Shown one piece after another: positions 17,074 to 31,245 of a DNA stretch of 64,000 nucleotides. The stretch's first letter is position 1, and each line of letters begins with the position of its first letter. The notes below the pieces were generated by a model. That model was not told where the DNA came from. It saw only the letters and a program-made list of their open reading frames with translations, and made no database searches. Location of the stretch: the NCBI RefSeq assembly GCF_003334405.1, contig NZ_QOWM01000007.1. The stretch is one strand, 5' to 3'. A program made the position numbers and the translations under genes. This stretch comes from Escherichia coli. GTDB lineage: Bacteria > Pseudomonadota > Gammaproteobacteria > Enterobacterales > Enterobacteriaceae.

Positions 17074-18279
17074 ATGTTTCATCTCGATACTTTAGCAACG
17101 CTTGTTGCCGCAACGCTGACGTTGCTGCTCGGGCGTAAGTTGGTCCATTCCGTCTCCTTTTTGAAGAAATACACCATACCGGAACCTGTTGCGGGTGGTT
17201 TGTTGGTGGCGCTGGCGCTACTAGTACTGAAAAAAAGCATGGGCTGGGAAGTCAACTTTGATATGTCCCTGCGCGATCCGTTAATGCTGGCTTTCTTCGC
17301 CACCATTGGCCTGAACGCCAACATTGCCAGTTTGCGTGCCGGTGGGCGTGTGGTTGGCATCTTCTTGATTGTGGTTGTTGGTCTGTTGGTGATGCAAAAT
17401 GCCATTGGCATTGGTATGGCTAGCCTGTTAGGGCTTGATCCGCTGATGGGGCTGTTGGCCGGTTCTATTACGCTTTCCGGCGGTCACGGTACGGGCGCTG
17501 CGTGGAGTAAATTGTTCATTGAACGTTATGGCTTCACCAATGCGACGGAAGTGGCGATGGCCTGTGCAACGTTCGGTCTGGTGCTGGGCGGCTTGATTGG
17601 CGGTCCGGTGGCGCGCTATCTGGTGAAACACTCCACCACGCCGAACGGTATTCCGGATGACCAGGAAGTCCCGACGGCGTTTGAAAAGCCGGATGTGGGC
17701 CGCATGATCACCTCGTTGGTGCTGATTGAAACTATCGCGCTGATTGCTATCTGCCTGACGGTGGGGAAAATTGTTGCGCAACTTTTGGCTGGCACTGCTT
17801 TTGAACTGCCGACCTTCGTCTGTGTACTGTTTGTTGGCGTGATTCTGAGCAACGGTCTGTCAATAATGGGCTTTTACCGCGTCTTTGAGCGTGCGGTATC
17901 CGTGCTGGGTAACGTAAGCTTGTCGTTGTTCCTGGCGATGGCGTTGATGGGGCTGAAACTGTGGGAGCTGGCTTCGCTGGCGCTGCCGATGCTGGCGATT
18001 CTGGTGGTACAGACCATCTTCATGGCGTTGTATGCCATCTTCGTTACCTGGCGCATGATGGGCAAAAACTACGATGCGGCAGTGCTGGCTGCGGGTCACT
18101 GTGGTTTTGGCCTCGGTGCAACGCCAACGGCAATCGCCAACATGCAGGCGATCACTGAACGCTTTGGCCCGTCGCACATGGCGTTTTTGGTGGTGCCGAT
18201 GGTCGGTGCGTTCTTTATCGATATCGTCAATGCGCTGGTAATTAAGTTGTATTTGATGTTGCCGATTTTTGCCGGTTAA
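17074..18279 (+). CDS. gltS: sodium/glutamate symporter
   Basis: 401-aa ORF matching E. coli GltS. Confidence 0.93.
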   Translation: MFHLDTLATLVAATLTLLLGRKLVHSVSFLKKYTIPEPVAGGLLVALALLVLKKSMGWEVNFDMSLRDPLMLAFFATIGLNANIASLRAGGRVVGIFLIVVVGLLVMQNAIGIGMASLLGLDPLMGLLAGSITLSGGHGTGAAWSKLFIERYGFTNATEVAMACATFGLVLGGLIGGPVARYLVKHSTTPNGIPDDQEVPTAFEKPDVGRMITSLVLIETIALIAICLTVGKIVAQLLAGTAFELPTFVCVLFVGVILSNGLSIMGFYRVFERAVSVLGNVSLSLFLAMALMGLKLWELASLALPMLAILVVQTIFMALYAIFVTWRMMGKNYDAAVLAAGHCGFGLGATPTAIANMQAITERFGPSHMAFLVVPMVGAFFIDIVNALVIKLYLMLPIFAG

Positions 18280-18319
18280 CCGATGAAGCGGCGGTAGAAG
18301 TGCCGCCGCAACAAAGACA

Positions 18320-18402
18320 AATGCCTGATACGCTTCGCTTATCAAGCCTGCGTATTGATTCATAATTTATTGAATTTGTAGGGTGAATCGCATCCGGCAG
18401 GA
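18320..18402. repeat. REP (repetitive extragenic palindromic) elements
   Basis: tgcctgatacgcttcgcttatcaagcctgcg and gtagggtgaatcgcatccggcagg resemble the REP consensus (GCCTGATGCG...TTATCAGGCCTAC / GCATCCGGCA); lies between gltS and recG. Confidence 0.55.
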
Positions 18403-18444
18403 AGGTAGGGTAACCTGAAATGGCGGTCTTCTCACTGCCGCCTT

Positions 18445-20526
18445 TTACGCATTCGAGTAACGTTCTGTCTCCGGCATCCAGCGTTCTATCAAGGCTTTTG
18501 CCTGTTGTGGGTAACGTTCGTGAATATGTCGCGCCAGGCGCTGAACTTCCGGGATCATCGCCTGATCGCGCAGTAAATCCGCCACTTTAAATTCAGCATT
18601 ACCCGTCTGACGCGTGCCTAACAATTCGCCAGGGCCGCGAATCTCCAGATCTTTTTGCGCAATCACAAAACCGTCGTTACTGTCGCGCAGCACTTGCAGG
18701 CGAATTTGCGCCGTTTTAGAAAGCGGCGTTTTGTAGAGCAGCACGCAGTGAGAAGCCACCGCGCCACGACCTACGCGCCCGCGCAGCTGGTGTAACTGCG
18801 CCAGACCCAGACGCTCAGGGTTTTCGATAATCATCAGGCTGGCGTTAGGCACATCAACACCGACTTCAATAACGGTAGTGGCAACCAGCAGATGTAGCTC
18901 ACCTTGTTTAAACGACGCCATCACCGCCTGTTTCTCGGCTGGTTTCATCCGCCCGTGTACCAGGCCAACATTCAATTCTGGTAGCGCCAGTTTCAACTCT
19001 TCCCAGGTAGCTTCCGCCGCCTGCGCTTCCAGTAACTCTGACTCTTCAATCAACGTACAAACCCAGTACGCCTGACGACCTTCAGTTATGCAGGCGTGGC
19101 GCACGCGGTCAATGATGTCGGTACGGCGGGTATCAGGAATAGCGACCGTAGTCACTGGCGTGCGGCCTGGCGGCAGCTCATCTATCACCGAGGTATCGAG
19201 ATCGGCATACGCCGTCATTGCCAGCGTGCGGGGGATCGGCGTGGCGGTCATGATCAACTGATGCGGATGGAAGCCCTGCTGCTGGCCTTTCTCCCACAAT
19301 GCCAGACGCTGATGCACGCCAAAACGATGCTGTTCGTCGATAATCACCAGCGCCAGGCCGTTAAACTGCACCTGTTCCTGGAAGATGGCGTGTGTACCGA
19401 CAATCATCTGCACCTGACCGCTGGCGATGGCTTCCTGCTGAGACAGTCGCGCTTTGCCTTTCTGCTTACCGGCGAGCCAGCCCACTTTGATACCGAGCGG
19501 TGCAAACCAGTTGCGGAAGTTATTGGCGTGCTGCTCGGCGAGTAATTCGGTTGGTGCCATCAGTGCCACCTGTTTGCCGTGGGCAATCGCACGCAGCGCG
19601 GCGAGGGCGGCGACCAGCGTTTTACCGGAACCTACATCGCCCTGTACCAGGCGCATCATCGGCACATCCAGCGCCATATCATGCTCGATCTCCGCCACTA
19701 CGCGTGCCTGTGCGCCCGTTGGCTTGAACGGTAAGGCGGCGAGGAGTTTATTTTTCAGCGTGTCATTGGCGCTCAGCGGCTGGGCATGAAAACGCTGTGC
19801 TCCGGCACGTAAGGCTAACATGCTGAGGTTGTGCGCCAGCAGTTCTTCCAGAATCAGACGACGTTGCGCCGGATGCTGCCCGGTTTCCAGATCGCTAAGC
19901 TGTAGCGTCGGTGGCGGGCGGTGCAAAGTGCGCAACGCTTCCGGTAGCGTCATCATTCCTTGTGACAGTTCCGGCGGCAGGAGTTCTTCAATGGCGCAGG
20001 TGTCGAGCAGATCCAGCGCCTGGTCGGTTAATTTACGCAGCGTGGCCTGCTTTACGCCTTCCGTTGTTGGATAAACCGGCGTGAGCGTTTCCTGTAATTC
20101 TGGCGTGCTGAGATCGCCCTGCACGCGGTATTCCGGGTGGATCATCTCCGCACCATATTTACCGCGCTTTGCTTCGCCATAAGCCAGTACACGGCGGCCC
20201 GTCGCCAGGCTATTTTTCATTGCCGCGCTGAAATTGAAAAAGCGCATGGTGAGGATGCCGGAACCGTCGCTGATCTGGCAGGTCATCATCCGCCGACCGC
20301 CGAAGGAGATATTGCAGTTCAGCACTTCGCCTTCCACCGTGGCATAAACGCCCGGCAGTAGTTCTCCGATGGGGTAGAGATGGGTGCGATCTTCGTAGCG
20401 CAGGGGAAGGTGTAAGAGTAAATCCTGCACGGTATGCAGGTTGATTTTCGCCAGTTTGTTACTAAGCGCTGCGCCAACGCCCGTTAGGGAACTGAGCGGG
20501 ACAGTATCTAACAGGCGGCCTTTCAT
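18445..20526 (-). CDS. recG: ATP-dependent DNA helicase RecG
   Basis: 693-aa product (start MKGRLLDTVPLSSL); helicase motifs GDVGSGKT, DEQHRFG. Confidence 0.95.
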   Translation of the reverse strand: MKGRLLDTVPLSSLTGVGAALSNKLAKINLHTVQDLLLHLPLRYEDRTHLYPIGELLPGVYATVEGEVLNCNISFGGRRMMTCQISDGSGILTMRFFNFSAAMKNSLATGRRVLAYGEAKRGKYGAEMIHPEYRVQGDLSTPELQETLTPVYPTTEGVKQATLRKLTDQALDLLDTCAIEELLPPELSQGMMTLPEALRTLHRPPPTLQLSDLETGQHPAQRRLILEELLAHNLSMLALRAGAQRFHAQPLSANDTLKNKLLAALPFKPTGAQARVVAEIEHDMALDVPMMRLVQGDVGSGKTLVAALAALRAIAHGKQVALMAPTELLAEQHANNFRNWFAPLGIKVGWLAGKQKGKARLSQQEAIASGQVQMIVGTHAIFQEQVQFNGLALVIIDEQHRFGVHQRLALWEKGQQQGFHPHQLIMTATPIPRTLAMTAYADLDTSVIDELPPGRTPVTTVAIPDTRRTDIIDRVRHACITEGRQAYWVCTLIEESELLEAQAAEATWEELKLALPELNVGLVHGRMKPAEKQAVMASFKQGELHLLVATTVIEVGVDVPNASLMIIENPERLGLAQLHQLRGRVGRGAVASHCVLLYKTPLSKTAQIRLQVLRDSNDGFVIAQKDLEIRGPGELLGTRQTGNAEFKVADLLRDQAMIPEVQRLARHIHERYPQQAKALIERWMPETERYSNA

Positions 20527-27978: not shown

Positions 27979-28023
27979 TGCCCACTCCATGTGATATCAA
28001 TTGCAAAGAAAGTAAATCTGTAA

Positions 28024-28039
28024 CTGTATTTATATACAG
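28024..28039. promoter_or_regulatory. LexA (SOS) box upstream of dinD
   Basis: CTGTATTTATATACAG matches the CTGT-N8-ACAG consensus, about 46 bp upstream of the dinD start codon. Confidence 0.8.
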
Positions 28040-28199
28040 TTGTGAGTATCTCACGTTCTCAGTGTGCTGGGCAAAAAAACATCGCAAAATCTGGAGCAGG
28101 CACGAAAAACAGAATTGAAAGTTGCGGGGAAGAAAAATGCCGCTCTGTTTGAGTGGGCGGCATTTGTGAAGGCTGAAAAGTAAGAATTGGCGTTACGAG

Positions 28200-29063
28200 T
28201 TATTCAATATTCTGAATCTGCTCGCGCATCTGCTCAATCAACACTTTCAGCTCAATCGCGGAGTTTGTCACTTCGGCATTGATAGACTTCGACGCAAGAG
28301 TGTTCGACTCGCGGTTGAACTCCTGCATCATAAAGTCCAGACGACGACCAACGGCTTCTTTTTTCTTCAGAATGTTGTAGGTCTCTTTGACATGCGCTTC
28401 GAGGCGGTCCAGTTCTTCGGCAACGTCAATTCGTTGTGCCAGCAGAACCAACTCCTGCTCCAGACGGTTGTTTTCCAACTGAACCTGAGCATCTTCCAGC
28501 TTCGCGACCAAGCGTTCACGCTGCCATTGCAGGATTTCCGGCATATGGGAGCGGACTTTGACCACTTCGGCGGTGACGCCTTCCAGACGCTGCTCGATCA
28601 ATGCTTTCAGTGCCTGACCTTCGGTTTCGCGCGCGACAATAAAGTCGTCCAGCGTACCATCCAGCGCCGCGAGAATTTCAGCGGCAATGGCGTCAAGATC
28701 CTGCTCCTGGGCTGCCATCACGCCCGGCCAGCGTAGAATATCAACCGGGTTGATTTCCCCTTCGTCACTCTGCATTTTTACCCAGTTCGCGGCAGTTACC
28801 AGCTGTTTAGCCAGTTTTTCGTTGAGGATCAGCTCACCTTGCGCGCTAACATCTGGCTCATAGCGCAGGGTACATTCCACTTTACCGCGCGTCAGGCGAG
28901 AACGAATACGCTCGCGAACGACAGGTTCAAGGCTACGGAACTGCTCCGGCAGACGAAAGTAAGTTTCCAGATAACGCTGGTTTACCGAGCGCATTTCCCA
29001 GGTTGCGCTCCCCCATTCACCCTTGATTTCACGCCGGGCGTAGGCGGTCATACTGCGGATCAT
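28200..29063 (-). CDS. yicC: YicC-family endoribonuclease (stress-induced)
   Basis: 287-aa ORF matching E. coli YicC; divergent from rph. Confidence 0.9.
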   Translation of the reverse strand: MIRSMTAYARREIKGEWGSATWEMRSVNQRYLETYFRLPEQFRSLEPVVRERIRSRLTRGKVECTLRYEPDVSAQGELILNEKLAKQLVTAANWVKMQSDEGEINPVDILRWPGVMAAQEQDLDAIAAEILAALDGTLDDFIVARETEGQALKALIEQRLEGVTAEVVKVRSHMPEILQWQRERLVAKLEDAQVQLENNRLEQELVLLAQRIDVAEELDRLEAHVKETYNILKKKEAVGRRLDFMMQEFNRESNTLASKSINAEVTNSAIELKVLIEQMREQIQNIE

Positions 29064-29189
29064 AGACGTTCCTGTTTATAAAAGGAGAGGTGGAAGGATT
29101 ATAGCCATCGATGCCTTGTCAGGATAGGAATAACCGCCGGAAGTCCGTATAATGCGCAGCCACATTTGTTTCAAGCCGGAGATTTCAAT

Positions 29190-29906
29190 ATGCGTCCAGC
29201 AGGCCGTAGCAATAATCAGGTGCGTCCCGTTACCCTGACTCGTAACTATACAAAACATGCAGAAGGCTCGGTGCTGGTCGAATTTGGCGATACCAAAGTG
29301 TTGTGTACCGCCTCTATTGAAGAAGGCGTGCCGCGCTTCCTGAAAGGTCAGGGCCAGGGCTGGATCACCGCAGAGTACGGCATGCTGCCACGTTCTACCC
29401 ACACCCGTAACGCTCGTGAAGCGGCGAAAGGTAAGCAGGGTGGACGCACAATGGAAATCCAGCGTCTGATCGCCCGTGCGCTTCGCGCGGCAGTAGATTT
29501 GAAAGCGCTGGGTGAGTTCACCATTACGCTGGACTGCGACGTGCTTCAGGCTGATGGTGGCACGCGTACCGCTTCGATTACGGGTGCCTGTGTGGCGCTG
29601 GCAGATGCGCTACAGAAGCTGGTGGAAAACGGCAAGCTGAAAACCAACCCGATGAAAGGGATGGTAGCCGCGGTTTCTGTCGGGATTGTGAACGGCGAAG
29701 CGGTTTGCGATCTGGAATACGTTGAAGACTCTGCCGCAGAGACCGACATGAACGTAGTGATGACCGAAGACGGGCGCATCATTGAAGTGCAGGGGACGGC
29801 AGAAGGCGAGCCGTTCACCCATGAAGAGCTACTCACCTTGTTGGCGCTGGCCCGAGGGGGAATCGAATCCATTGTAGCGACGCAGAAGGCGGCGCTGGCA
29901 AACTGA
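29190..29906 (+). CDS. rph: ribonuclease PH (intact, full length)
   Basis: 238-aa product from [13 protein letters not shown] to ...QKAALAN; no frameshift near the 3' end, unlike the rph-1 allele of K-12 MG1655. Confidence 0.93.
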
Positions 29907-29914
29907 TTTTTAAG

Positions 29915-29938
29915 GCGACTGATGAGTCGCTTTTTTTT
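29915..29938 (+). terminator. rph-pyrE intercistronic attenuator/terminator hairpin
   Basis: gcgact-gatg-agtcgc stem followed by T8 between rph stop and pyrE start; position matches the known pyrE attenuator. Confidence 0.75.
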
Positions 29939-29970
29939 GTCTGTAGAAAAGTAAGATGAGGAGCGAAGGC

Positions 29971-30612
29971 ATGAAACCATATCAGCGCCAGTTTATTGAA
30001 TTTGCGCTTAGCAAGCAGGTGTTAAAGTTTGGCGAGTTTACGCTGAAATCCGGGCGTAAAAGCCCCTATTTCTTCAACGCCGGGCTGTTTAATACCGGGC
30101 GCGACCTGGCACTGTTAGGCCGTTTTTACGCTGAAGCATTGGTGGACTCCGGCATTGAGTTCGATCTGCTGTTTGGCCCTGCTTACAAAGGGATCCCGAT
30201 TGCCACCACAACCGCCGTGGCGTTGGCGGAGCATCATGACCTGGACCTGCCGTACTGCTTTAACCGCAAAGAGGCAAAAGACCACGGTGAAGGCGGCAAT
30301 CTGGTTGGTAGCGCGTTACAAGGACGCGTAATGCTGGTAGATGATGTGATCACCGCCGGAACGGCGATTCGTGAGTCGATGGAAATTATTCAGGCCAATG
30401 GCGCGACGCTTGCTGGCGTGTTGATTTCGCTCGATCGTCAGGAACGGGGGCGCGGCGAGATTTCGGCGATTCAGGAAGTTGAGCGTGATTACAACTGCAA
30501 AGTGATCTCTATCATCACCCTGAAAGATCTGATTGCTTACCTGGAAGAGAAGCCGGAAATGGCGGAACATCTGGCGGCGGTTAAGGCCTATCGCGAAGAG
30601 TTTGGCGTTTAA
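29971..30612 (+). CDS. pyrE: orotate phosphoribosyltransferase
   Basis: 213-aa product from [13 protein letters not shown]; PRPP-binding motif [13 protein letters not shown]. Confidence 0.95.
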
Positions 30613-30648
30613 AGAAACTCGCCGGATGAAAATTCATCCGGCGTCATA

Positions 30649-31245
30649 TTACTGCAACTGCGCGGCAATTAGCGGCCAGCGGGCGTCAAAATCATCCGTC
30701 GGGCGGTATTTAAATTCGCTGCGGACAAAACGTGACAGCATACCTTCACAGAAGGCCAGGATCTGGCTTGCCAGCAGGGTTTCATCGGTGGTGTAACCTT
30801 CACCCTCACGCATTCTCTTTTCACGCAATACCTGGCGCAGCTGCGCTTCAATACGCTCGAACAGCTGGTTGATGCGCCCTTGCAGGCGATCCTGTTCAAA
30901 CATTAGCGCATGACCAGTGAGGATGCGGGTCAGGCCAGGATTACGCTCACCAAAACCGAGAAGCAGCAACACAATCAGACGCAGGCGCGCTGTGGTGTCT
31001 TTCTCATCTTTCAGAATCAGATTGATGCGAGTAATCAGGCTATCTTCGATAAACTCAATCAGGCTATCGAACATGCGGGTCTTACTGGGGAAGTGGCGAT
31101 ACAGTGCCGCTTCGGAAACGCCGACAGAGGCGGCCAGTTTTGCCGTCGTGATACGTTGGCTTCCATCGCTGGATTCCAGCATCAGCGCCAGAGACTGAAG
31201 TATTTCCTCGCGACGGTTCCTTTTCGCAGTTTGTTTTTCTGCCAT
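30649..31245 (-). CDS. slmA: nucleoid occlusion factor SlmA (TetR family)
   Basis: 198-aa product from [16 protein letters not shown]; TetR-type HTH. Confidence 0.92.

Follow-up and report, generated by a model that had tools for sequence, protein, structure and literature searches.

The rph-pyrE operon of Escherichia coli is known for a UTP-modulated attenuator located between its two genes (Poulsen 1984; Bonekamp 1984; Jensen 1993; all three referenced in PMC2784333 and PMC5691611). According to the corresponding passages of PMC2784333, PMC4166923 and PMC7818426, which refer to the same three studies, pyrE is controlled by UTP-sensitive attenuation, and whether the terminator hairpin forms is governed by the distance at which the ribosome near the end of rph trails RNA polymerase. 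As these three sources relate where they treat the rph-1 allele, the ribosome stops too far upstream in rph-1 strains, which leads to frequent termination and little pyrE expression; growth is recovered by mutations through which translation again stops nearer to the hairpin. The locus studied here lies within a stretch of 64,000 nucleotides from E. coli (contig NZ_QOWM01000007.1 of assembly GCF_003334405.1; in the following, the window), and all coordinates refer to this stretch. It is best explained as the E. coli rph-pyrE operon in its wild-type form, in which rph is full-length and the UTP-sensitive attenuator carries a lineage-specific allele of the 3' arm, designated GC-T8 after the bases at the end of the arm and the T-run that follows; we assign this reading a probability of roughly 0.9, and nothing contradicts the identification of the operon itself. 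The operon and its attenuator are textbook material, and the exact sequence is found in hundreds of public genomes where the two genes are annotated as rph and pyrE.

The rph gene (29190-29906, plus strand) starts with ATG at position 29190, and its reading frame closes with TGA at 29904-29906; the translation yields an RNase PH of 238 amino acids with an intact C-terminus (last residues ATQKAALAN), as the sequence-only reading of this DNA had proposed. In a profile search, the protein scored 380.8 bits against the NCBIfam equivalog model TIGR01966 (curated cut-off 141.5), with residues 2-236 aligned to model positions 1-235 of 236, and it thereby qualifies as a full-length member of this RNase PH family. 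The nearest solved structure is the RNase PH 1r6l (E = 3.7e-104), and the alignment of solved RNase PH chains with the window protein reaches residue 237. The window rph is identical at the DNA level to rph of strains CEA106S and M217, where the product is annotated as WP_001247093.1; by virtue of this identity, phosphorolytic 3'-5' exoribonuclease activity would be expected of the window protein. Compared to K-12, and setting aside an indel in a G-run, the gene shows nine nucleotide differences that are synonymous or missense; relative to a repaired K-12 protein, they amount to two amino-acid changes, V138A and I216T. A simple promoter scan of the window flagged no promoter for rph; a TATAAT motif is visible upstream of the gene at 29148-29153.

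The G-run indel is the site of the rph-1 frameshift, and it was examined by pairwise alignment of window positions 29100-30000 with the MG1655 locus (NC_000913, 3814000-3818000). The window has the wild-type run of five G residues at 29856-29860 (plus strand) and reads GAGGGGGAATC, whereas MG1655 has four and reads GAGGGGAATC; since the allele is defined by the deletion of one G from the G5 run, the rph-1 frameshift is absent from the window, and the aligned 3' end of rph shows no sign of the 1-bp deletion. As a result of its G4 run, the MG1655 reading frame closes early, and its rph product ends after 228 amino acids with the residues ARGESNPL. The premature stop of rph-1 strains, as located from the end of the MG1655 product, corresponds to a TAG triplet at 29875-29877 on the plus strand of the window, 34 nt before the hairpin and 29 nt ahead of the natural TGA; in the window, this triplet is out of frame and unused. 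Since rph is read to its natural stop, the coupling geometry between translation and the attenuator is intact, and the rph-1 polarity that affects pyrE in MG1655 and W3110 is absent; this statement is based on the sequence in combination with the published mechanism. The sequence-only reading had arrived at the same position on both points, the missing frameshift and the missing polarity, and the alignment upholds it. The normal pyrE expression that it deduced from this is less certain, as the exact level of read-through and its response to UTP may be altered by a weaker attenuator hairpin.

The attenuator, an intrinsic terminator identified by terminator scan and by folding, occupies positions 29912-29933 on the plus strand, within the rph-pyrE spacer of 64 nt. 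It consists of a 5' arm (29912-29920), a GATG loop (29921-29924) and a 3' arm (29925-29933); the scan reports nine pairs, four of them G-C, a 4-nt loop, and a run of T residues that extends to 29938. The natural rph stop codon is located 5 nt before the base of the hairpin and 7 nt before its GGCGAC core, and the 5-nt gap between TGA and hairpin is the same as in K-12. The 41-nt attenuator segment folds with a z-score of -4.06, and only one of 200 shuffled sequences folds as well. Located on the coding strand between rph and pyrE, and composed of a G+C-rich hairpin and a T-run, the element has the features that define the pyrE attenuator; it is not identical in sequence to the canonical version of K-12 and the majority of E. 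coli. The descending arm reads GAGTCG-CTTTTTTTT in the window and GAGTCGCCTTTTTTTT in MG1655, one C longer; in other terms, a 3' arm of GAGTCGC followed by T8 stands against the canonical GAGTCGCC-T8. The C that MG1655 and most E. coli possess is missing at the junction of the arm and the T-run at 29930-29931 (plus strand; GTCGC|T8 versus GTCGCC|T8), with the consequence that the basal pair of G29914 with C is replaced by G29914·T29931, a G·U pair in the transcript. The hairpin and the T8 run that the sequence-only reading had described are thus in place; its description of the attenuator as canonical and intact does not apply to the hairpin, whose 3' arm is one C short.

The T8 run itself spans 29931-29938 (plus strand), and its first three T residues can pair with G29914, A29913 and A29912. 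The scan of the MG1655 version also gives nine pairs, five of them G-C; five T residues follow the nine-pair stem in the window and six in MG1655. For the nine-pair stem of the hairpin, the calculated energy is -11.6 kcal/mol in the window and -14.3 kcal/mol in the MG1655 version; for the G-C core, the values are -9.4 and -12.7 kcal/mol. These fold energies, together with the terminator criteria, predict that GC-T8 still acts as a terminator, at a stability reduced by about 2.7-3.3 kcal/mol. The allele probably causes slightly more basal read-through, and its effect on pyrE control is probably small; both the size and the direction of this effect are derived from the calculated energies.

The published attenuation mechanism, taken from the literature, can be projected onto this geometry. 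When UTP is plentiful, RNA polymerase would outrun the ribosome that is finishing rph; with the polymerase ahead, the hairpin would form and transcription would end within the T-run, short of pyrE. At low UTP, the polymerase would pause and the ribosome would catch up; positioned at the rph stop, 5 nt before the hairpin, the ribosome would cover the 5' arm, and transcription would enter pyrE. We infer the masking of the 5' arm by a terminating ribosome from the size of the ribosome footprint.

The downstream gene pyrE (29971-30612, plus strand) encodes an orotate phosphoribosyltransferase of 213 amino acids; its open reading frame is intact, it scores 240.6 bits against NCBIfam model TIGR00336 (cut-off 106.8), its protein is identical to PyrE of K-12, and it is annotated as WP_000806177.1 in strains with identical DNA. 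A GAGGAG motif at 29958-29963 (plus strand), 7 nt before the ATG, is likely the pyrE ribosome-binding site, judging from its sequence and position, and this region is unchanged in the alignment with MG1655. The gene order yicC / rph-pyrE / slmA-dut-coaBC is common to the window, MG1655 and M217, and the window neighbors dinD, yicC, slmA, dut and coaBC represent the usual arrangement in E. coli. Where pyrE and slmA converge, the terminator scan located a stem-loop at 30620-30643 (found on the minus strand; ten pairs, seven of them G-C) that likely marks the end of the operon. The loop of this structure reads AATTTT in the window and ACTTTT in MG1655, one base apart.

The attenuator was compared across species by searching one genome of each for exact copies of the 17-nt hairpin core, GGCGACTGATGAGTCGC. 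The core was recovered downstream of rph in 22 species of Enterobacteriaceae, including E. albertii and another Escherichia species, as well as Citrobacter, Leclercia, Enterobacter, Pseudocitrobacter, Silvania and Kosakonia. Since the species were found by an exact match to the core, conservation of the core is circular, and independent observations are limited to the C beside the core, the T-run and the distance to the stop. In all 22 species and in MG1655, the core is followed by one or more C residues and then by a run of T7 to T9, and the window alone has no C at this point; a stop triplet, counted regardless of frame, precedes the core by 6-7 nt in every one of the 22 species. The presence of the C in all of these species marks its loss in the window as derived, at a site that is conserved elsewhere; this invariance speaks for the importance of the site and for a change that may be other than neutral. 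In two species, the stem is extended on both sides (GGGCGAC...GTCGCCC), such that an extra 5' G is matched by an extra 3' C; this two-sided extension would be compensatory and is consistent with a real helix. The species concerned are Citrobacter sp. 18056 and Kosakonia pseudosacchari.

Within E. coli, allele frequencies were obtained by exact match among the 5425 complete genomes that hold the locus. The window 81-mer (29880-29960), which contains GC-T8, was present in 485 genomes (8.9%), and the corresponding MG1655 82-mer with GCC-T8 in 4576 genomes (84%); about 360 genomes contained neither sequence in exact form. Direct inspection showed a GCC-T7 attenuator in strains IAI1, JL05 and 2017.15.01CC, and a GCC-T9 attenuator in EC195; the T-run of the E. 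coli attenuator has a length of T7, T8 (in most strains) or T9. Since strains with GCC-T7 exist, GC-T8 could have originated in two ways: either GCC-T8 lost a C, or a C was replaced by T in a GCC-T7 version of the IAI1 type.

The distribution of the allele is structured by lineage. Genomes were ranked against a 901-nt query (29100-30000), and every ~92nd genome was sampled: the six top-ranking samples, which reach to about rank 460, were 100% identical, after which identity fell directly to 99.2%, so that the window haplotype and the next nearest haplotype are separated by about seven differing positions. Nearly all GC-T8 genomes carry this one 901-nt haplotype, and no intermediate that combines the window rph haplotype with a GCC hairpin was seen among the sampled ranks; this pattern points to a single origin of GC-T8 in one lineage. 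At least 30 strains were listed with identity over window positions 29100-30000; eight of these are published ST167 strains (ECONIH6, AR_0011, AR_0014, WCHEC005237, CRE1493, CREC-532, CREC-629 and SCEC020007; PMC6392093), and the list also includes ML35, W5-6 and canine isolates. Separately, the marmot isolate STEC299 (NZ_CP022279.1; at about 1050-1060 of extracted locus L055) has GC-T8 on a phylogroup B2-like rph-pyrE haplotype. This haplotype is unique among the 5425 genomes, and its nearest relatives CFT073, UTI89 and Nissle 1917 have GCC-T8; in STEC299, GC-T8 either arose a second time on its own or reflects a faulty assembly of this one genome.

These observations allow the effect of the allele to be weighed in a stronger form, in which GC-T8 is a functional regulatory variant: the attenuator would be substantially leaky, with higher basal pyrE expression and a smaller UTP-dependent range in the lineage that includes ST167. 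The loss of 2.7-3.3 kcal/mol affects a pair at the base of the stem, adjoining the U-tract, and the missing C is kept by each of the 22 other species recovered and by 84% of the E. coli genomes; yet the GC-T8 stem retains nine pairs and a T-run and passes the terminator criteria, and at -11.6 kcal/mol the hairpin is still stable. The allele is carried by 485 genomes, nearly all of one haplotype, but this number is inflated by the heavy sampling of drug-resistant clones, and the allele may be hitch-hiking. The GC-T8 allele on the B2-like haplotype of STEC299 could mean recurrence; however, this strain is represented by one assembly, where the missing C could be an error. Finally, laboratory evolution of MG1655 repeatedly selects mutations that raise pyrE expression, as reported in the pertinent sections of PMC2784333 and PMC4166923, but the benefit concerns pyrimidine-starved rph-1 strains and not strains with intact rph. 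The laboratory-evolution papers were also searched for data on 1-bp deletions in the attenuator hairpin; only an 82-bp deletion and insertions that restore the rph frame were found. On balance, a substantially leaky attenuator appears unlikely, roughly on the order of one chance in several. Going one step further, GC-T8 would be adaptive, either by raising basal pyrE expression or by flattening UTP control; it would have been fixed in the successful phylogroup-A lineage to which the high-risk clone ST167 belongs, and possibly have arisen again in STEC299. This proposal is more doubtful still.

A different reading would detach the hairpin from translation altogether and regard it as a passive partial terminator, or as an element affecting RNA stability where rph ends. 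The element lies outside the curated RNA families, inasmuch as an Rfam scan of 28900-30800 returned nothing at E <= 1, and the missing match to an Rfam model can be read in favor of a passive role. Against this, the stop codon, hairpin spacing, loop and T-run are as in K-12, where coupling is established (PMC2784333, PMC4166923 and PMC7818426, in the passages that describe it), and the spacing between stop and hairpin is conserved across genera; a passive element is very improbable. The missing C as a sequencing or assembly artefact was considered, given that a 1-nt length change in a CC beside a homopolymer is an indel-prone context, and was rejected, since the exact 81-nt sequence recurs in 485 complete genomes from many laboratories and the missing C is tightly linked to one 901-nt haplotype, about seven positions away from the next nearest. 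The preferred reading is a wild-type operon, presumably regulated by coupling of rph translation to a hairpin with a natural, lineage-specific base change.

The suggestion of the sequence-only reading that the intact rph gene is a useful marker of strain identity turns out to be weak. Of 5426 complete E. coli genomes, just 167 contain the exact rph-1 80-mer, and the two such genomes in the sampled rows belong to the K-12 laboratory strains MG1655 and J53; ~97% of the complete genomes are without the exact rph-1 sequence. Intact rph is the norm, and all that it rules out is the MG1655/W3110 line; the GC-T8 attenuator allele together with its linked rph haplotype is the sharper lineage marker. 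In the same survey, the 80-nt stretch that surrounds the rph-1 site went unmatched in 68 locus-holding genomes, and in NBRC 3301 (NZ_CP048439.1) the 901-nt query was matched in two pieces that covered 92% of its length; match patterns of this kind would fit the 82-bp rph-pyrE deletion that is known from laboratory evolution of K-12.

As a single-base allele of a hairpin, GC-T8 offers a natural test of the share that one basal G-C pair has in a regulated terminator. If pyrE control turned out to be measurably altered, the locus would illustrate, on a small scale and in a clone of clinical importance, how the regulation of pyrimidine synthesis varies in nature.

Three described systems can be set beside the window locus. 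One is the haplotype of ST167 and related phylogroup-A strains (among them WCHEC005237, CRE1493, ECONIH6, AR_0011 and M217), which is 100% identical over window positions 29100-30000; M217 and CEA106S are identical to the window across 29190-30612. M217 differs by an ISL3-like ISKox3 transposase between dinD and yicC (17641-18861 of extracted locus L062), which is absent in the window, where the dinD-yicC spacer measures only 209 nt (about 27990-28200); the window thus does not come from M217. The rph-1 strains MG1655 and W3110 share the locus and the haplotype family, with about 99% identity over 901 nt; in contrast to these strains, where the G4 run directs translation to the TAG triplet, the G5 run of the window leads to the natural TGA. 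The K-12 rph-pyrE attenuator, finally, corresponds to the window in its genes, their order and orientation, the rph stop and the 5-nt gap, as well as in the 5' arm, the GATG loop, the T8 run and the pyrE ribosome-binding region; it differs from the window in the 3' arm, which is one C short in the window and has a G·U pair in place of G-C.
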